A DNA stretch of 64,000 bases, from assembly GCA_046045965.1 (NCBI GenBank), contig JBJOKS010000014.1, forward strand, positions 1-64,000. Direction: 5' to 3'. The translations under genes were made by a program, and so were the position numbers. Below, one piece after another: positions 55,640-64,000 of the stretch. The notes under the pieces were generated by a model that ran no database searches, was not told where the DNA came from, and saw only the letters and a program-made list of their open reading frames with translations. Each line of letters begins with the position of its first letter. Within the stretch, counting starts at the first letter, position 1. This DNA is from Cyanobacteriota bacterium. Lineage in GTDB: Bacteria > Cyanobacteriota > Cyanobacteriia > Cyanobacteriales > Nostocaceae.

Positions 55640-58600
55640 TTAATCTTGCAAATCTCTAACAAGTTTCATTAATTTGTTATATCTCTCTACATTACCTTGA
55701 TTTAAAGATATTTCTGCTGCTTTTGTAAAATCAGCAATAGCAGCTTCGTCATTATAAAATCCCCTGTAAATCAAACCGCGATTACCATAGGCGGAATCTA
55801 GTAAAGGGTCTAGATTAATTGCATTAGTATAATTTTCAATAGCTGCATCGTATTCTTCTAAATTATGCAAGTAGACACCACGATTATAATAAGCATACGC
55901 TAGTTTTTCATTATACTCTTTTGCTAATTCAGATTTTAATTCAATTGCTTCTTTATAATCTTCTATTGCACCTTGATAATCGTTAAGTTTGTTACGCAAA
56001 AAAGCTCTTAAACCATAACCTTCTGCAAAATCATCATTGATATATTTCAGTAACATAGTTAATTTATCTATGCCTTTTTGAATATCTCCTCCATCTCTGA
56101 CATCATCTAATACGTTGTTGTATACTTGTTTCTCCAAATCAGATTGTGCTGTAAAGTAATCTAACAAAATTGTAGAAGAATCATCATGAGAGCTTGGTAA
56201 AATTTGATAGGCTTTCCACAAAGTTCGATAAGCATCATAATAAAATTCAAGTCTAGATAAAGCTTCTCCTTTCTTCCACCAAGCTTGGTAAAAATTAGGA
56301 TCTATTTCTATAACCTCATCAAAAATCTGTACTGCTTCTTCATACTTTCCATAATACAAGAGTTCTGAACATTCACTAAATAACTGTTGTGCTTTTTGCC
56401 ATGCGCCCAATACCAAATCTGAATCATCAGATATTTCACCATTTTCACGAAAGCGCAGAAAATGTATACAACCAGATTTTTCTCCAGCTAAAATTGTTAA
56501 TCCATCTGGAGAAATTGCACAGGATGTTAATTCAGTATTACCATTGAAACTAGCAACTACTTCTCCAGTTTGTAAATCCCAAACTTTGAGAGATTGATCC
56601 TCTGATACTGAAACTGCATATTTACTATTAGGTGAAATAGCTACATCATTAATATAATTTGTATGTTCAGTAAAAGTTTGTATTAATTTTACACCATTAT
56701 TTATATTCCAAACTTTGAGGGTTGTACTATCTAAACGCGAGACTATTTTTGTAGCATCAGGAGTAATAGGAACAGGATTAAAAAATGCTTGGTTTCCACT
56801 TAAAGTTAGTAGTTCTTGAGATGAACCTAAATTCCAAACTTTAATTCCATAATCTCCACTTGATACAACATTTTGATCATCAGGTGTTATGCTAATTGCT
56901 CTAATTCTCTCATATTCCTTATCTCCACTCATGATTAGTAACTCTGTTCCTGTTTGCAAATCCCAAACTTTAATAGTGTTATCTCTGGAAGCAGAAATAA
57001 TTTTCTTGCCATCAGGAGTTATAATTACATCTACAACCCAATCATCATGTCCATTAATTGTCAGTAAGTTCTGACCTGAATTTAAATCCCAAACTTTAAT
57101 TGTTTTATCCTCTGAAGCTGAAACGGCTTTTTTACCGTCAGGAGTAACAGCTAAAGCTAATACATCCTTATCATGTCTCTCTAAACTGAATAACTCTTGA
57201 CCACTGTGTAAATCAAAAACTTTAAGGGTGTTATATTTTGCAGCTGCAATAACCCGTTGACTATCAGGTGTAATTTTAAACATTTGTAATGCTGAACGCC
57301 AAGAAATTTCTACATCATTAAATGTGAATAATTCCCTACATTTATGTAAATCCCAAATTTTTAATTTAAAATGTTCTGCTGAAATAGCTTTTTTACCATC
57401 AGGACTTACTGCTATTGCGTGTACTGTACTTTGATGCCCAGGTAAAATAGGTACTGGTTTATGCTTTTGTAAATTCCAAATTTTGATTGTATTGTCTCGT
57501 GATGCTGAAATTAGATATTTACTATCAGCAGTGACAACTAAATCATTAATATCACCAGAATGACCAATCAATGTTTCTAATGATGGATGAGAACCCCAAT
57601 TACCCCAAATGTTAATAGTATTTTCATCTGAACCTGAAATTATCTTTTCTCCATCAGGAGTTACAGCAATAGCAAGCTCATCAAATGATGCTAAAGCTAG
57701 TGTACCGAAAGAATCTACAGATTGACCAGTTTGTAAATTAAAAATTTTTATATCATCACCTGAAACTAAGATAATTTCTTTGCTATCCGCGCTTATTGTT
57801 ATATCATTTATTTTGTCTTTGTAGGGCTTGATATGAATTAATTCTATGCCATTTAATAAATCCCAAACTCTCACAGTTCTATCATCTGAACCTGAGACAA
57901 TCTTGCAACCATCAGGGGTTATTGCTATAGCATTAATTTGTTCAGTATGTCCGGTCAGAGTCAGCAATTCTTCACCTGTTTCTAAATTCCAAATTTTAAT
58001 AGTCTTATCCCACGAAGCAGAAATAATTTTACTACCATCAGGAGTCACTATTACCGAGGAAACACAATCAGAATGTCCCGTTAAAGTCAGTAATTCTGTA
58101 CCTTTTTTTAAGTCCCAAACTTTAATATTATTATCCTGTGAACCAGAAACTATTTGTTTATTATTAGGAGTTACCGCTACAGACCATACTCTATCTGAAT
58201 GTCCATGTAATGTTCTAATTTCCTGTCCGGTTTGAAAGTCCCAAATTTTAATATTTTTATCCCAAGAACCAGACACTATTTGTATCCCTGCATCAGTATA
58301 AGCTAAAGCTACAGCCATTACTTCTTCAGTGTGTCCTATCAGGGTTCTTAACATTGCTCCCCCTGGTGCGGTTAAGCTGGGGGTTAGGGGATATAATTTG
58401 AGTTCTGGTTGTTGTTTTGCTTGGGTTAATAATTTTCTAATTTCTGGTGTGTCAAAATGTGGTAAACGTCCTAAAAATTGAGCCGCTAGTTGTCTAGTAT
58501 CTACTGCTAAAGCATCTGCGGATAGTCGTAGTGCATCTTGAATTAAAGTGAGACTTTCTTGTGTTTCTTCTGAAAATTCAAGTTGAGATTGTAAGGCTAA

Positions 58601-58786
58601 TTCATAATCAGCAATAAGTGATTCTACTCCTGATTCAGATACTTTGAAATCTAGAAACTCGAAATTTGTTAATAATTTTTGTAATCTTTCTCCTGCTGAT
58701 GATTTTGCTAGATAAGTTGGGATTTCTAAAAAATCTCTGCGCTTATCAATAGGCATATTTGCCAATCGTGTTTTGAAGTTACTCAT
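55640..58786 (-). CDS. APAF-1-like helical domain + ~14-15 WD40 repeats + C-terminal TPR protein
   Basis: N-terminus LLT.FEFL..K....GV..LI.DY / IQ.ALRLS...L..D..QLA.Q.LGRL; repeated GH...V..VA.TPDG..I.S.S.D.TIK.WD; AYYNRG TPRs; ATG overlaps the upstream stop (ATGAGTAA). Confidence 0.85.
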   Translation of the reverse strand: MSNFKTRLANMPIDKRRDFLEIPTYLAKSSAGERLQKLLTNFEFLDFKVSESGVESLIADYELALQSQLEFSEETQESLTLIQDALRLSADALAVDTRQLAAQFLGRLPHFDTPEIRKLLTQAKQQPELKLYPLTPSLTAPGGAMLRTLIGHTEEVMAVALAYTDAGIQIVSGSWDKNIKIWDFQTGQEIRTLHGHSDRVWSVAVTPNNKQIVSGSQDNNIKVWDLKKGTELLTLTGHSDCVSSVIVTPDGSKIISASWDKTIKIWNLETGEELLTLTGHTEQINAIAITPDGCKIVSGSDDRTVRVWDLLNGIELIHIKPYKDKINDITISADSKEIILVSGDDIKIFNLQTGQSVDSFGTLALASFDELAIAVTPDGEKIISGSDENTINIWGNWGSHPSLETLIGHSGDINDLVVTADSKYLISASRDNTIKIWNLQKHKPVPILPGHQSTVHAIAVSPDGKKAISAEHFKLKIWDLHKCRELFTFNDVEISWRSALQMFKITPDSQRVIAAAKYNTLKVFDLHSGQELFSLERHDKDVLALAVTPDGKKAVSASEDKTIKVWDLNSGQNLLTINGHDDWVVDVIITPDGKKIISASRDNTIKVWDLQTGTELLIMSGDKEYERIRAISITPDDQNVVSSGDYGIKVWNLGSSQELLTLSGNQAFFNPVPITPDATKIVSRLDSTTLKVWNINNGVKLIQTFTEHTNYINDVAISPNSKYAVSVSEDQSLKVWDLQTGEVVASFNGNTELTSCAISPDGLTILAGEKSGCIHFLRFRENGEISDDSDLVLGAWQKAQQLFSECSELLYYGKYEEAVQIFDEVIEIDPNFYQAWWKKGEALSRLEFYYDAYRTLWKAYQILPSSHDDSSTILLDYFTAQSDLEKQVYNNVLDDVRDGGDIQKGIDKLTMLLKYINDDFAEGYGLRAFLRNKLNDYQGAIEDYKEAIELKSELAKEYNEKLAYAYYNRGVYLHNLEEYDAAIENYTNAINLDPLLDSAYGNRGLIYRGFYNDEAAIADFTKAAEISLNQGNVERYNKLMKLVRDLQD

Positions 58787-60185
58787 CTCCAAACATTGCC
58801 TCCCATAAATAATCTGCTTTTTGTTTGTTAATTACCTGTAATGAAACTCCTGCTTGTTTAACAATTTCTTGGTCATGCAGAAATTCGGAGAAACTACGAT
58901 GATAAATGCTATAACAAGTTCTATCTTCAATCAGACGTTTATGTAAAAATTGTAGCCATTTTTCTAAAATCTCCTGTACTGTTAATGGTGTTTCGTGAAT
59001 ATATTCAGATATTAATTCACAGGAAATAGGCTGACGGGTTTCTGCTAAATGATAAACTACATACAGTTTAATCATAGGTCTGGGTTCGTCATTCATTCCC
59101 ATGCGTACCCAATGAAATTTATAGTATTCTTGTAAACCTGTGGGTAAACCTTCAAGGTTTAAATCTTGATATTCATTTTCTTCAATATCTCTCATTACAT
59201 GAAATAAATACATGAAATTGTTTTGACTACGATTAGCAATTTCATCAATAAATTTCTCTTGTGTAACTGATTGAGATTTAATCCATTGACGTAAGGTTTC
59301 ACTATTGTTAACTCGATTGCGAACGTATGTACAAATATCCTCTCTACTTTCAGCTTGATATTCTTCGAGTAAGTTTAATATTTGTTTTGGAGAATCTGTC
59401 ATTAATCGTACATTGGCATCACGTCTAACTGTGGTAATAAAGTAAATACCTTGGGGTAAATAACGCGGTAAATACAAAATATTGGCAGTTTTATTTTGTT
59501 TAGATTGATCAACTTCATCTAAAGCATCAACAGCGATAACTACAGGGTTGCCATTGCTTTTTTTAGCTACTTCTTCTAATAATTTGCTTAGAAAAATTCC
59601 ATTATTTTTGGCTTCATCAGATAAAGAATAGGGGAGTTGATACCGTTGAATGATTTGTTGACAAATGCTTTCGAGAAATTGCTGAGGATCATTTTGTCCT
59701 TCTTGTTCAATGTTGAAATGATATATACATTCTGTATCTTGGACATATTTAGCTAAGATGGCACTTTTTCCCATTCCAGGGTCAGCAGTGATGGTGAAAT
59801 AACCATTGGGTTTACTGTTAATAAATTCAGATATGGCACTAAATACATATTCACGTCCTACAAACCCTTCCAACTTACTAGCAATTATCGCTGGTAATGG
59901 TTGAAATGGTATTTCTTTTGGTTGTTCATTTTCTGATTCTTGATTTTTCTTTCTTGCTACTGGAGTTTTATCAACTATATCTTCCCAATTTTCTATTCCT
60001 ACAGCTTTACAGAGAGCAACAAATGTTTCTTGTTCAACTCTCTCACCATGCTGAAAGCGGACTAATGTTGAATCTGAACAATTGGCATATCTGTACCATT
60101 TTATCTCTTTAGTCGTCCAGCCTTTTTTTCTTCTAGCTAAATCAACCATTTCTATTCCTTGTTGAGAAAGTCCGATTGTTGGCAT
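58779..60185 (-). CDS. N-terminal HTH-like + STAND (NACHT/NB-ARC-like) P-loop NTPase lacking a sensor domain
   Basis: FVGRE, ADPGMGKS Walker A, IAVDALDEV Walker B, YSIYH.SF.EFL end of winged helix; start MPTIG at 60185 with AGGTGGAG SD. Confidence 0.82.
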   Translation of the reverse strand: MPTIGLSQQGIEMVDLARRKKGWTTKEIKWYRYANCSDSTLVRFQHGERVEQETFVALCKAVGIENWEDIVDKTPVARKKNQESENEQPKEIPFQPLPAIIASKLEGFVGREYVFSAISEFINSKPNGYFTITADPGMGKSAILAKYVQDTECIYHFNIEQEGQNDPQQFLESICQQIIQRYQLPYSLSDEAKNNGIFLSKLLEEVAKKSNGNPVVIAVDALDEVDQSKQNKTANILYLPRYLPQGIYFITTVRRDANVRLMTDSPKQILNLLEEYQAESREDICTYVRNRVNNSETLRQWIKSQSVTQEKFIDEIANRSQNNFMYLFHVMRDIEENEYQDLNLEGLPTGLQEYYKFHWVRMGMNDEPRPMIKLYVVYHLAETRQPISCELISEYIHETPLTVQEILEKWLQFLHKRLIEDRTCYSIYHRSFSEFLHDQEIVKQAGVSLQVINKQKADYLWEAMFGDE

Positions 60186-60221
60186 ATTTATACTCCACCT
60201 AGTGTTTTTAATTAGCGTCAA

Positions 60222-60253
60222 TTTGGGATCAGTTTGGGATCAGTGATCCAAAA
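60222..60253. promoter_or_regulatory. Putative operator: TTTGGGATCAG x2 followed by inverted TGATCCAAAA
   Basis: Direct and inverted repeats in a divergent intergenic region. Confidence 0.4.
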
Positions 60254-60403
60254 CTGGGATTATTTACCCTTAATTCCTGTGTAATTCTAAAAATTGTCGA
60301 AAGCGAACGTTGGCCAACCCGCTGGAAACTCCATTCCGGGGATTTTGCAGAATCCCCAAAATCAGACCGATTGAAATACAGAGAGTTATCGGGACTTATA
60401 CGT

Positions 60404-60970
60404 ATGCCAGTAGTTAAGCCAATTGTAGCAAAGAATGAGTTGCACGCGGTACAACAGGAGGCGATCGCCAACTATATCCAGTACGCACAGTCACCACTAG
60501 AATTAGAGTTTGGGGAAAAATTGCAGACTAGAGATTTTAGGGCGATCATCTATTATTTCATATATCTCAAACACTGGACACAAGAAAGAACTGTGGGTGC
60601 GCTGACTGGGTACATGATGTTTTTATTTTTAATTTCTGTTTATCATCCCCAGTATCGTATTATTCCCATAATTGACGTAGATGAATTGTGGCATACACAC
60701 ATCTTTTTGAATACAAACAATTATGATCAAGATTGCCAAAAATTATTTGGCTATTATTTAGATCATGCCGCACATATTTCGTTAGAGGAAACAGAAGAAT
60801 ATGATTCTCAAGCGGCTTTTGCTAACACTTTGATTCTGCTAGAAAAACATTTTGGTAGTGCAGCTTTAGTAAAATTAGCTAATACTAACTCTCTACAAGC
60901 AGCCACTTCTGGTCCCGTCACAGCTATTTTCCCATCCAGTAGTTGTGGTCCGATGGTATTTAGAAATTAG
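60404..60970 (+). CDS. Glycine-rich-domain-containing-protein-like (GRDP-like) uncharacterised protein
   Basis: Y..FL.L...P, P..DVDELWHTHI..T..Y..DC..LFG..LDH, F..T..L....FG motif; start ATG 60404 or TTG 60371. Confidence 0.75.
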   Translation: MPVVKPIVAKNELHAVQQEAIANYIQYAQSPLELEFGEKLQTRDFRAIIYYFIYLKHWTQERTVGALTGYMMFLFLISVYHPQYRIIPIIDVDELWHTHIFLNTNNYDQDCQKLFGYYLDHAAHISLEETEEYDSQAAFANTLILLEKHFGSAALVKLANTNSLQAATSGPVTAIFPSSSCGPMVFRN

Positions 60971-60992
60971 ATATTTTCTGATATACCTAATA

Positions 60993-61126
60993 CACAGCAT
61001 TTCTTGTTGAGGTACACATCTAGCTGTCAAGATGCCCGCACCACAAGAGTTTTATTATTCAAGTTTGTACTTCATTTGCCCGAAATCTGCTGTAATTGTA
61101 GGAGTTTAGCATTGCTAAACCCCTAC
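60993..61126. repeat. Small IR element (ACAGCATTTC...GAAATCTGCTGT) followed by a GTAG REP-like hairpin
   Basis: Imperfect terminal IR; hairpin 61098-61126. Confidence 0.55.
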
Positions 61127-61220
61127 GACTGTATTAATAATTAGAGATATTGTGTTTGTGCTATTATTGAACCAAAACTAATATTATTTAAATTTGATTT
61201 AAATTTGATTTAAATTAAAT

Positions 61221-63689
61221 TTATCGTTCTAACGATTGGATAAATAATTCCATATTCTCTTTATCCACCAACATTCCCAATTTATCAAAATCCTGATAAG
61301 CTAACTCTGCAAATTTTTTAGCATCAACAAAATCATAATTAGCTTTCTTTAAATTAGCCATAGAAGCCTTACAATGAGCAATTAAAGATTTATCAAGATT
61401 CTCATCGGACATAGACAAGCATTCTGTTAATAATTTTTCAGCAGCATCTAAATTTTTATTTGCCTTAATGTACAAGTCAGCCACCCATTTCTGATTAAAA
61501 TAAATTGCACGTTTGGAATTAATATTTTCAGCTAAATTGGCGGCTTTTTGAAAACATTTCTCAGCTTTATCTAAATCATGCTGATCACCTCTTTCATAAT
61601 AAATTCTGCCTTCATAATGCCAAATCTTTAACCCTTGACGATCAATATTTTCTGGATTTATATCAACAGATTTATTCAACAGTTCCTTACTTAGCTTCAG
61701 CCATAAAGCAGCTTTGTTGTATTTCTTTTGTTTCCAATAAAAATAAACAATATTAATAGCTAGTTCAATCTCCTGTATATCGTGATATTGCCGAAGTTTC
61801 CAAGCTTTTCTAAAGTATTTTTTTGCTTTTATAAAATTCTCCATTAAAGTGAGAGTCCATGCTTGATCATGGAATAATTCAAATAAATGTGATGAGTAAT
61901 CAGGATTTTGTTCAGATGCTTCTATCAGCCAATCTGTCCATTCTAAACGGTTAAATAGAGAATTAGCACCAGATCCTTGATGATAAGCTGAAGGACGAAT
62001 ATTCCGCCAAAAAGTCAAAGATTCGAGAAATTTTTCATGCTCTTGACACCATGCAATTGCTGTTTGTAAATTATCATATTCAGCAACGAAGTAATCCATA
62101 TACTCATATTCATACCAATCTTTGTGATCCTTTTTTCTGTATCCTTGAGAAAATTCTAAATACCAATTAATCCATCTTTCTCTTGCTTGCTGCTCAAAAA
62201 CAGGATTATTTGTTAATTCAGTAGATACATAATTACGAATTAGAGGTAAAGGAATTTCGTAACGATTTTCATCATACTTAATTAACAAGCGATCTTCTAA
62301 TAATTGCAAATCCTTGTTTATTTTATCATCATCTGTTACGGTAAGTGCAACATAAGCGATCGCATCTCGCAAAGCAGGTTTAGGAAACATCACCAAAGCC
62401 ATTAATAAATCATAAGCAGAAGCAGATTCTTCCTTTAATGATTTTAATAAAAATTCCTCTTTATTTGGCAATTTACTTAAACAATTATCATGCTGCAACT
62501 GATTCAGAGCATCAATAATTAACCCCGGTATCCCACCAATAATATCTTTTATTTGTTGATATTGGTTTGGTGTAAGATTAACACTTAATTCTTGAGCTTT
62601 TTCTGTGATAAAAATTCTCGTGTCTTCTGCTGAGAGAATTTCCAGATGTAAAGGATGACCTAGCTTAGTTCTTCGACGTGATGTAATTAAGATTTTCACA
62701 TTAGAAGGCATTTGTTCAATTAGTGACTTAATATCTTGTTTATCTGCCTCAGTTTCCACATTATCTATAATTAACAGAGTATTGATGTTTTTAAATTTAG
62801 CAATAATCTTTTTTAAGAGTTGCTCTTGATTGGACTCATTAATAATTTTTTTCTTAATTTCCAAAGTAAGTGCAATGTCTTTATAAACATTCTCTAAATT
62901 AGATTCTCGACTCTCACAATGTTGCTGTTGTTTAATAGAAGTAAAAATAAAAGCATCAAACATTGGTAAATCCAAGCTGTGATTACTCTTTCTAGCTTGT
63001 AAAAAACGCAAAGCAGCTTCTTTTACTAGAGTAGTTTTACCAAAACCAGGCAAGGCAGTTATACTAATTATAGGTATATAAGGATTATCAATTAAGTTTA
63101 ATAATTTTGTAACTTCTGTTTCCCTAGCAATAAAATTATTATAATTTTTGACTAAATTACTGTAAATAATATCTTTTCTGCTTTCTGCTAATTCTTGCCA
63201 ATTTGTTAAACCTAAAACATGACAATAAGCTATAAAAGCAAGTTGATTAATGAATAAACCACGTACAAAGCTATTCCAAGTTCTATATGATATTCCCGTA
63301 AAATATATTTTCCTGTCTTCTATTAAATCTTCTATAGTTTTATAGAAAGAAATTTTGCGTTTCTGTTGATTTTGAAAAAGTTTAATCTTTATCAGATTAA
63401 AAAGTCTGGCTCTTTCTGAATTAATCTTGGTTCTATCATCCTTACTTACGTTAACTAGAGGCACAAAATAATATTCAAGTTCGTTATACCATCTTTGATC
63501 ATTTTCTCCCCAATTATTTTCCCTTGCATGTTGTGCCATTAAAAACTTGGAAGCTTCACGGAAAGGTGCATTTTCCATTGTATATTCTCTGTCTTGTCTA
63601 GCCGCTTCAACCTCTTTCCGTTTCCCTTCAAGTACCCTGAAAGTTTCCACTACAAGCATATATAAACCCTGTTCCCTGACCAAGATCAC
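61221..63689 (-). CDS. HTH-like + NB-ARC/STAND NTPase + TPR-like sensor protein
   Basis: FIARE, ALPGFGKT, LLIIDNVET, ILITSRR, GGIPG, C-terminal TPR-like helices; start may be ATG 63659. Confidence 0.83.
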   Translation of the reverse strand: MILVREQGLYMLVVETFRVLEGKRKEVEAARQDREYTMENAPFREASKFLMAQHARENNWGENDQRWYNELEYYFVPLVNVSKDDRTKINSERARLFNLIKIKLFQNQQKRKISFYKTIEDLIEDRKIYFTGISYRTWNSFVRGLFINQLAFIAYCHVLGLTNWQELAESRKDIIYSNLVKNYNNFIARETEVTKLLNLIDNPYIPIISITALPGFGKTTLVKEAALRFLQARKSNHSLDLPMFDAFIFTSIKQQQHCESRESNLENVYKDIALTLEIKKKIINESNQEQLLKKIIAKFKNINTLLIIDNVETEADKQDIKSLIEQMPSNVKILITSRRRTKLGHPLHLEILSAEDTRIFITEKAQELSVNLTPNQYQQIKDIIGGIPGLIIDALNQLQHDNCLSKLPNKEEFLLKSLKEESASAYDLLMALVMFPKPALRDAIAYVALTVTDDDKINKDLQLLEDRLLIKYDENRYEIPLPLIRNYVSTELTNNPVFEQQARERWINWYLEFSQGYRKKDHKDWYEYEYMDYFVAEYDNLQTAIAWCQEHEKFLESLTFWRNIRPSAYHQGSGANSLFNRLEWTDWLIEASEQNPDYSSHLFELFHDQAWTLTLMENFIKAKKYFRKAWKLRQYHDIQEIELAINIVYFYWKQKKYNKAALWLKLSKELLNKSVDINPENIDRQGLKIWHYEGRIYYERGDQHDLDKAEKCFQKAANLAENINSKRAIYFNQKWVADLYIKANKNLDAAEKLLTECLSMSDENLDKSLIAHCKASMANLKKANYDFVDAKKFAELAYQDFDKLGMLVDKENMELFIQSLER

Positions 63690-63781
63690 TTAGTATTCCA
63701 TTTTAACTGATCTTGTTGGCTGCCAAGTCAATTGTGAAAATAAAAACAAGGTGTCTACATATATGTCAGGAGTTTACATTT

Positions 63782-64000
63782 ATGGCTCGTGTGGATTGGA
63801 ATGGTCCGGTTTATCACTCTAAAAACGGGCGTTACTACTGCTATGGTACTGATAGGGATGGTAATAAGCATATTTTAGATGGGGATAGTCAGCGAGATTT
63901 GCAAGTAAATTATCTTGGTGAACTATCACCAGGTGGACTTCATGATCATCACTACACAAAAAACGGTAGGTGGTACACCCAGACACGAGTTGATACTGGA
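63782..64000 (+). CDS. Partial hypothetical protein running off the window end (MARVDWNGPVYHSKNGRYYCYG...)
   Basis: ATG with AGGAG SD ~10 nt upstream, 73 open codons; absent from the ORF track because it has no stop in the window. Confidence 0.65.
   Translation, partial: MARVDWNGPVYHSKNGRYYCYGTDRDGNKHILDGDSQRDLQVNYLGELSPGGLHDHHYTKNGRWYTQTRVDTG

Follow-up and report, generated by a model that had tools for sequence, protein, structure and literature searches.

Putative signal-gated STAND transcription factors with head-specific upstream boxes and a GRDP-like partner in an accessory island of a Nostocaceae genome

The regulator GutR carries an N-terminal helix-turn-helix (HTH), an NB-ARC domain and tetratricopeptide repeats (TPR) in this order, and its target, the glucitol operon, is divergent. 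GutR of Bacillus subtilis is regarded as a non-immune regulator among the STANDs (ATPases of signal transduction that have numerous domains; PMC13581612) and activates Pgut (PMC6768931). In the case of MalT, of the E. coli maltose regulon, ligand-driven oligomerisation leads to cooperative binding at several promoter sites (PMC10427625, PMC6468293). An N-terminal ArsR-like head was predicted for PH0952 (PMC6468293), AfsR combines an N-terminal DNA-binding head with a nucleotide-oligomerisation domain (NOD) and TPR, and SARP-LAL regulators such as PimR of Streptomyces use heptameric direct repeats with 4-nt spacers, that is, an 11-bp period (PMC5930380). The present analysis concerns a 64,000-nt stretch of a Nostocaceae genome (the window: positions 1 to 64,000, forward strand, of contig JBJOKS010000014.1, assembly GCA_046045965.1), at the end of which two STAND genes, S1 and S2, are each divergent from a small gene; a third one, S3, lies just beyond the window, where positions are prefixed C14.

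Many cyanobacterial STANDs resemble nucleotide-binding leucine-rich-repeat receptors (NLRs) and are usually taken for presumptive immune receptors. Among the bNACHT effectors classed as 'adaptor', HTH heads were reported, and cyanobacteria are rich in NACHTs (10.1101/2022.07.19.500537). Such heads on cyanobacterial NACHT/STAND proteins were catalogued in 10.1101/2022.07.19.500537, PMC7159879, PMC8195603 and PMC10907252, in passages that give neither operators nor targets, and cyanobacterial APAF1_C/WD40 proteins were noted in PMC8891106. The part of the PMC13581612 supplements covered by a term search held no mention of HTH or GRDP; that paper has a STAND tree of 589 clades, and its large tables may cover the clades at issue here. 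The literature search, with most subscription papers outside its scope, returned nothing on the boxes or the STAND-GRDP cassette described below. An initial annotation of the window had proposed that S1 and S2 are ligand-gated switches of the divergent genes, or an immune module.

Putative DNA-binding heads and upstream boxes

Signal-gated transcription factors of the one-component STAND type are the probable identity of S1 (together with the WD40-TPR subunit), of S2 and of S3. The features observed are intact motifs of the STAND type, sensors made of repeats, a head that looks Cro/C1-like, and an array of direct and inverted boxes, specific to the head class, 30-160 nt upstream of each gene. 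Walker A and Walker B motifs were intact in all three proteins. The Pfam scores of S1 were 43.7 bits for NPHP3_N (cut-off 24.8) and 36.6 bits for AAA_lid_TANC1 (cut-off 29.1), S2 reached 38.9 bits with NB-ARC (cut-off 23.5), and NB-ARC of S3 was also above the cut-off. The C-terminal sensor is a TPR region within S2, and separate overlapping genes supply it for S1 (WD40-TPR) and S3 (TPR). The WD40/TPR gene matched WD40 (E 8e-109), TPR_1 (E 9e-21) and, below the cut-off, APAF1_C (E 4e-4). The genes named in the initial annotation were real and all six peptide segments quoted there were present; the S2 gene had been given the span 61221-63689, and its start is placed here at 63659, 63689 being an upstream GTG.

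The N-termini of S1 and S2 shared 28% identity over 40 aa with a pairwise E of 3e-6 (0.16-0.17 in genome-wide phmmer), by which the relationship asserted at the outset was borne out, as a weak one. The heads of S1 and S3 were far closer (E 3e-20, genome-wide phmmer). A head search of the own genome returned, below E 0.2, just S1, S2, S3 and one match at E 0.14, and the S1-type HTH head was matched in 89/201 genomes of the order, the own genome included. The heads are HTH-like with lengths of about 75-165 aa, and 52 of the 72 HTH-head proteins collected carry NB-ARC. S2 has an extended form of the head that contains a long insert, with the recognition-helix region near residues 120-160. The first match of the head in ESM Atlas was an 'HTH cro/C1-type' cluster (score 0.90, 165 shared features), and the ten best family-bearing matches share one clan. 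The head of S1, S3 and S2 thus looks Cro/C1-like.

Heads of this type were also met in other surroundings. At L345:13569-18001, an HTH + DUF4384 gene whose head seems to belong to the same superfamily is head-to-head with a long gene that is cas1-like (by eye a reverse transcriptase-cas1 fusion), and a TPR protein follows. Extended-XRE proteins precede MoxR-like ATPase and vWA-like genes (by eye) in L182, L183, L190 and L191, and also in L124, L125, L129 and L131, with two 11-bp-spaced TGATCAG boxes upstream of the start. A recurring 105-110-aa gene faces split HTH-STAND/TPR genes in L006, L007, L011, L024 and L062; it gave a weak DnaA_N-like STI match in L007.

The upstream boxes were studied in loci drawn from part of the 201-genome matches, 30 taken automatically and 60 as regions picked down the ranking. 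The resulting 90 head genes were reduced to 72 by dropping near-duplicates and the own genome, and the DNA upstream of 112 other genes from these loci served as controls. An unseeded 6-mer ranking placed GGCTCA/TGAGCC at the top (37/72 upstream regions versus 9/112 controls, p 4e-11). A position weight matrix (PWM) seeded with the motif already noticed found at least three boxes before 40/72 head genes, compared with 3/112 controls and 3/360 shuffles. Boxes in reverse orientation cluster between -160 and -70 and those in forward orientation between -60 and -30; the usual spacing is 12 bp, with 9 and 11 bp also seen. The S1 boxes are TGATCC-type, lie at -69 (reverse), -58 and -47 with an 11-bp period, and have the same layout as the TGAGCC arrays of the family. 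The GATCA/TGATC repeats represent a variant of the box found family-wide. The repeats reported initially in both gaps were present, with starts at 60227, 60238 and 60244 in the S1 gap and at 63684 and 63708 in the S2 gap; taken by themselves they were modest (Poisson p ~0.01 and 0.025), and they are significant because they are conserved in other genomes. Sigma-70 promoter scans gave nothing above chance in the S1-GRDP gap or the gap between S2 and ORF 63782.

Beside the S1 boxes, at 60259-60275, a GGG...CCC-type element resembles by eye both the box of the winged-helix class and the DNA upstream in L158, where the S1-like NTPase carries a winged-helix head; a past head swap may have left this element as a relic. 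Upstream of L008:1494 a probable insertion parts the HTH-STAND start from its boxes, which stay beside a divergent RTX gene.

The S2 site, an inverted GATCA-N19-TGATC, is situated at -53 relative to the start of S2, and the start of ORF 63782 is 69 nt away; TAAAAT lies within the spacer on the S2 strand. The genome has 8 such sites, 3 of them within the island, where they precede S2, S3 and, by 69 nt, C14:64972. A pattern tuned after the site was first noted found 9/9 S2-type relatives, 6 of which were collected after that, compared with 2/112 controls and 0/72 short-XRE regions, and hit 15 places in the 5.3-Mb genome, 3 of them in the island. S3 combines a short S1-like head with an S2-type site upstream. 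The site at C14:64874 is S2-type with no STAND start behind it. TTGAC beside the S2 box was considered as a -35 element and is treated as a part of the site, because several relatives have no well-spaced -10.

The boxes followed the class of the head. For comparison, 26 LuxR-like and 26 winged-helix (wHTH) genes, non-redundant from 29 and 30 loci in the same neighbourhoods, were used; the class names are our labels from small profiles. At least two TGAGC were found before 39/72 XRE, 0/26 LuxR-like and 2/26 wHTH heads, and in 4/112 controls. The wHTH heads had at least two CCCAA boxes in 22/26 cases (controls 10/112), and ATACAC preceded 13/26 LuxR-like heads (controls 2/112). Heads without K/R in the TLxRF helix had non-canonical boxes in 8/8 cases, compared with 15/46 of the other heads (p 5e-4). 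A one-residue recognition code for GAGC versus GATC was rejected, because TGATC boxes also precede extended heads with K-R. A quick tree was made from 47 NTPase-TPR bodies of the S2-like kind (S2 and those 46 of the 79 loci that were long enough and had a head assigned); in it, the head classes required 7 changes versus a minimum of 4. The extended-XRE class occupied two separate places, both with the GATC site; the S2 branch is long and its position unsure. In the best reading of these data, head and boxes would travel together as a swappable cassette.

Proposed target genes, the GRDP-like partner and rival explanations

By analogy with MalT, AfsR and GutR, binding of a ligand to the WD40 or TPR sensor would lead to exchange of ADP for ATP and then to oligomerisation of the NTPase, and the oligomer would offer several HTH heads in register to the boxes spaced by 11-12 bp. 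We infer that the heads bind the boxes and control both back-to-back promoters: the STAND's own promoter likely, and the promoter of the back-to-back gene probably, with less direct support. The back-to-back targets would be the GRDP-like gene for S1, the block starting with ORF 63782 for S2 and an exosortase-dependent surface protein for S3. A divergent neighbour was found for 49 of the 71 head genes that have a neighbour, versus 37% of genes in the own genome. The transcriptional switch proposed initially is consistent with the Cro/C1-like head and the class-specific boxes; control of the divergent gene was upheld just in part, the boxes lying by the STAND start where the gap is long. The STAND-less site at C14:64874 would argue for neighbour control, or be a relic.

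The partner scan covered 36 of the 44 divergent partners, 8 being dropped as near-duplicates or doubtful open reading frames. By our classing, 13/36 belong to surface or secreted families (RTX 3, DUF4347 3, exosortase-dependent 3, lipase, CHAP, cohesin, GHL10), a share given without a computed background. In the S3 module (C14:67610-71529), S3 is divergent from an XDD3 exosortase-dependent (PEP-CTERM) surface protein. XDD3 also faces S2-like genes in L157, L171, L179 and L187.

The most conserved link is the convergent S2-GRDP pair. It was missed by the initial annotation, as were the third module (S3) beyond the window and the lack of conservation of ORF 63782 as a partner. The pattern scan of GTDB was run with the S2 alignment in place of the short HTH one, which varied too much for this purpose, and 79 loci from the best 80 of at least 150 confirmed matches were examined. 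A GRDP-like gene was convergent within three genes in 35/79 loci, irrespective of head class, head-to-head in 6 more and downstream on the same strand in 1, a total of 42/79 with 7 loci cut off downstream. The S2-type NB-ARC-TPR gene and the GRDP-like gene make up a conserved unit. Culturable carriers of this S2-GRDP cassette include Calothrix sp. NIES-3974 (L300) and Calothrix parasitica NIES-267 (L305). GRDP-like homologs were found in 34/201 genomes. Among 35 short GRDP genes (from 40 wide loci fetched, near-duplicates kept), 19 are divergent from a gene that has a DNA-binding head, 18 are convergent with an S2-like gene, and 10 show both arrangements, as in the window. The divergent heads facing GRDP belong to four classes, one an ECF sigma-like gene. 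In L158 the whole WD40/S1-like/GRDP/S2-like cassette is repeated with winged-helix heads. Cross-regulation by matched head classes within one GRDP cassette was inconsistent, as L158 matches and L152, L157, L164 and L172 do not.

The GRDP-like protein (25.8 bits with the Pfam family, cut-off 22.7) is most simply taken as a regulated output and is possibly a metal-binding protein. Y70, P88, D93, H97, H99 and H121 were invariant in the alignment, and C111 and the tail residue C181 near-invariant; D93, H97, H99 and H121 together with the tail Cys suggest a metal site. A comparison of the GRDP alignment with PDB sequences gave chance matches alone and no solved relative. GRDP-like/DUF1399 (PF07173), UCP032817-like (PF27765) and the long TIGR04222-type proteins have the same domain and Cys-bearing C-terminal tails as the window GRDP, which differs from the long Gly-rich forms in being short, soluble and tied to STAND regulators; no STAND lay within 1.5 kb of the long Gly-rich forms L115, L117, L120 and L121. 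GRDP was also considered as a precursor of a ribosomally synthesised and post-translationally modified peptide of the TIGR04222/MNIO kind (PMC12452194); no such enzyme was noticed beside the short forms, whose neighbours were inspected without a family scan. GRDP homologs without the Cys tail were seen in L158, L161, L167 and L172, each followed by an S-adenosylmethionine-dependent methyltransferase-like gene (Pfam-confirmed in L158). Those at L116:824-1312 and L189:8758-9345 have Cys-rich precursor-like tails, and L116 adjoins a dioxygenase-like gene (by eye).

The two small genes fared differently in the neighbourhood survey. Conservation of the partner held for GRDP, whereas ORF 63782 was rejected as a conserved partner, being a near-orphan: a search of 55-175-aa proteins, that is, without fused forms, returned one homolog at 86%. 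ORF 63782 had no match in Pfam, NCBIfam or PADLOC, and a metagenome scan gave just one 18-residue match.

A number of results weigh against the proposed transcription factors and their targets. The support of the head by Pfam is below the cut-off: S1 scored 14.6 bits with HTH_26 (cut-off 22), HTH_26 matched 6/22 aligned members with a best E of 8e-4, and the S2 head had no Pfam match. The PDB sequence search with the HTH alignment gave chance matches alone and no HTH relative. Fourteen LuxR-headed S2-like loci had other enriched words in place of the ATACAC box, and 17 VMAP-type heads had no clear box. The 112 controls include intragenic DNA, the PWM and the S2 pattern score the same sequences to which they were fitted, and all p-values overstate, because the genomes are related and hence not independent. 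Where the gap was at least 330 nt long (23 loci), most boxes lay no more than 170 nt from the STAND start and few were close to the other gene, with L008 and L085 as exceptions; autoregulation accordingly has better support than neighbour control. The association of boxes with divergence (33/49 divergent versus 6/22, p 0.002) weakens to p 0.06 without one tandem subfamily. Finally, the S1-NTPase family had a recognised DNA-binding head in 4/29 loci and a GRDP neighbour in 2/29, the own locus included in both; S1 would thus be one of many STANDs able to fill the GRDP-facing slot.

The rival that survives best shares the DNA-binding step and differs in ligand and purpose. The proteins would be immune receptors with transcriptional output, the sensors of which detect phage or non-self proteins and the heads of which turn on defence or surface-remodelling genes without killing. 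This appears unlikely. The accessory nature of the island, not found in 3/3 congeners and with an empty-site joint in one contig, is in its favour, as is the placing of the closest Apaf-1-like STANDs in cyanobacteria (PMC13581612). In addition, C14:64972, behind an S2-type site, matched the PADLOC profile C3a124 at E 1e-61, a type III-B CRISPR accessory family of which the function is given as not known (PMC6546367), and defence-linked transcriptional output may occur. The only homolog of C14:64972 in 251 genomes is placed beside the CRISPR-cas locus of genome G392 (L345), but without an S2 site. PADLOC matches were generic alone for S1, S2 and the WD40 gene (STAND_TPR E 4e-12, HEAT-ARM, mad8), each listed profile matched 1/72 family members, and 2/36 divergent partners matched, a kinase and a TerY-type vWA, compared with the 13/36 partners in surface or secreted families. 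No toxic enzymatic head (nuclease, TIR, Sir2 or protease) was found in S1, S2 or S3. The immune module offered initially was hence not upheld as a toxic-effector NLR, with no enzymatic head, no matching PADLOC system profile and 2/36 positive partners.

The region C14:64874-67530 comprises the S2-type site and a three-gene block, of which the first gene is the C3a124 match and the last encodes a pentapeptide-repeat protein. In G392 the block adjoins CRISPR-cas.

According to the second rival, which we consider improbable, the boxes serve autoregulation only and the output is a protein-level signalling hub, in which GRDP binds the S2 sensor as a MalY-like inhibitor or ligand and is not a target. 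The boxes are indeed anchored to the STAND start, inhibition of a STAND by a partner is known from MalT-MalY (PMC10427625), and the 35/79 convergent GRDP genes occur whatever the head class, so a shared promoter cannot explain the pairing. On the other hand, S2-like genes are also head-to-head with GRDP in 7 loci, the C14:64874 site has no STAND start behind it, and in 19/35 GRDP loci the divergent gene carries a DNA-binding head, these heads falling into four classes, one ECF sigma-like, which points to GRDP as a regulated gene. The last rival, that the repeats are mobile-cassette ends, recombination marks or dispersed short repeats and not operators, the pairing being island traffic, fits a region that is an accessory island in genomes full of short tandem repeats, but is very improbable in view of box sequences that vary with head class and recognition-helix residues, of boxes that keep a fixed position and polarity with respect to the start codon, and of an S2 pattern found just 15 times in 5.3 Mb, 3 of them in the island.

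Locus layout and accessory island

The coordinates of the features are presented in Table 1. The S1 stop overlaps the start of the WD40/TPR gene by 8 nt. A frameshift or an assembly error as the cause of the S1/WD40 split was rejected, because an independent contig from a DNA run (X3 record 10) spans the junction gap-free and a separate WD40-partner gene follows in 20/29 S1-family loci, the own locus included. The repeat between the converging GRDP and S2 genes had many 76-89% matches in the own and congeneric genomes, contains a 14-nt hairpin at 61098-61126 and is outside the proposed mechanism. A 15-nt imperfect inverted repeat (60333-60362) lies shortly before the GRDP start, and at the S2 stop an AT-rich 11-nt unit is present in three tandem copies (61180-61223). 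Beyond the window edge, ORF 63782 is followed by 4 more genes on the + strand, then the TPR gene and S3.

Table 1. Features of the S1-S2-S3 region; positions refer to the window unless prefixed C14.
Feature	Position	Strand	Description
WD40/TPR gene, S1 sensor subunit	55640-58786	-	1048 aa; APAF1_C-like helical domain, WD40 propellers, C-terminal TPRs
S1	58779-60185	-	468 aa; short HTH, looks XRE/Cro-C1-like, ~residues 1-75; NPHP3_N/TANC1-lid STAND NTPase
S1 box array	60216-60256	none	TGATCC-type boxes; 13-nt inverted repeat at 60230-60256
GRDP-like / UCP032817-like gene	60404-60970	+	188 aa; divergent from S1, convergent with S2
Dispersed cyanobacterial repeat	60972-61130	none	between converging GRDP and S2 genes
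S2	61221-63659	-	812 aa; extended XRE-like HTH, NB-ARC, TPR; GTG further upstream at 63689
S2 site	63684-63712	none	inverted GATCA-N19-TGATC between S2 and ORF 63782
ORF 63782	63782-64084 on C14 (past window end 64000)	+	100 aa, His/Asp/Gly-rich; first gene of + block
S3	C14:68946-70292		third HTH-NB-ARC gene, beyond window; 8-nt overlap with TPR gene

S1, S2 and S3 are held by an island of ~16 kb (C14:55.55-71.59 kb) with 33% GC, flanked by a CBS gene and a NUDIX gene, in a genome of 5.3 Mb and 38% GC. The island was not found in 3/3 congeners examined, one of them 80% complete; G259 had just a 430-bp remnant of the TPR gene at the island position. One contig of the RNA run X5 connects both island flanks as an empty-site joint. 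The contigs of RNA runs X5 and X10 covered the island at a low and patchy level, uninformative on expression. The genomes examined were rich in short tandem repeats, and the S2 relatives were mostly from named cyanobacteria, a few from Chloroflexota.

Meaning and comparison with known systems

The feature is real and more general than the initial annotation held, comprising a putatively DNA-binding STAND family with cognate box arrays and an NB-ARC-TPR/GRDP cassette. Class-specific box arrays offer a way, at the level of sequence, to recognise those STANDs that are transcription factors and to predict which genes they target; with a reporter placed on an operator of this kind, a ready ligand screen would be available, phage proteins included. 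The STAND pairing also gives a testable context to the GRDP-like family, of which the bacterial biochemistry was found undescribed. As a tentative and rather doubtful extension, filamentous cyanobacteria may possess a large rewireable NLR-type repertoire signalling to transcription, the bodies of which would be re-addressed by swapping head plus operator; the NB-ARC-TPR/GRDP unit would then pair a receptor with a partner that acts as a His/Asp/Cys metal or redox switch, the two together activating surface and defence-accessory genes on invader or stress ligands. If true, this repertoire would form a prokaryotic counterpart to NLRs that activate transcription, and the first functional handle on the GRDP/DUF1399 domain, common to plants, would be obtained.

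The proteins are likened to GutR by description, both being non-immune-type STAND regulators in the proposed reading. The cyanobacterial side differs in its large paralogous family, interchangeable heads, split sensor genes (S1, S3) and multi-box arrays, and in partners that are mainly surface or unknown proteins and not a sugar catabolic operon; no polyol dehydrogenase gene was found in the island. The likeness to MalT and other LAL proteins is a STAND switch with a TPR-like sensor. In MalT the DNA-binding domain is C-terminal, whereas it is N-terminal and Cro/C1-like in the window proteins, and, among the families listed, GerE/LuxR was matched neither by S1, S2 and S3 nor by the sensor genes. 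PH0952 comes nearer to them in layout than MalT does, though it is an archaeal protein with a head of another kind. AfsR and the SARP-LAL regulators share the N-terminal head with NOD and TPR and the 11-bp repeat period; their boxes and targets are unlike those of the window genes. No SARP domain was listed for S1, S2 or S3, and the AfsR model met just the TPR of the S3 sensor, far below the cut-off. The Avs, bNACHT and NLR systems have in common with them the tripartite head-STAND-repeat architecture and a patchy, island-borne occurrence, in contrast to which the window proteins are NB-ARC and NPHP3-like, have no more than generic matches to defence profiles and have conserved operator-like arrays. 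In the best reading, S1, S2 and S3 are without the defining features of MalT/LAL, SARP or Avs and would work like GutR, MalT and AfsR.

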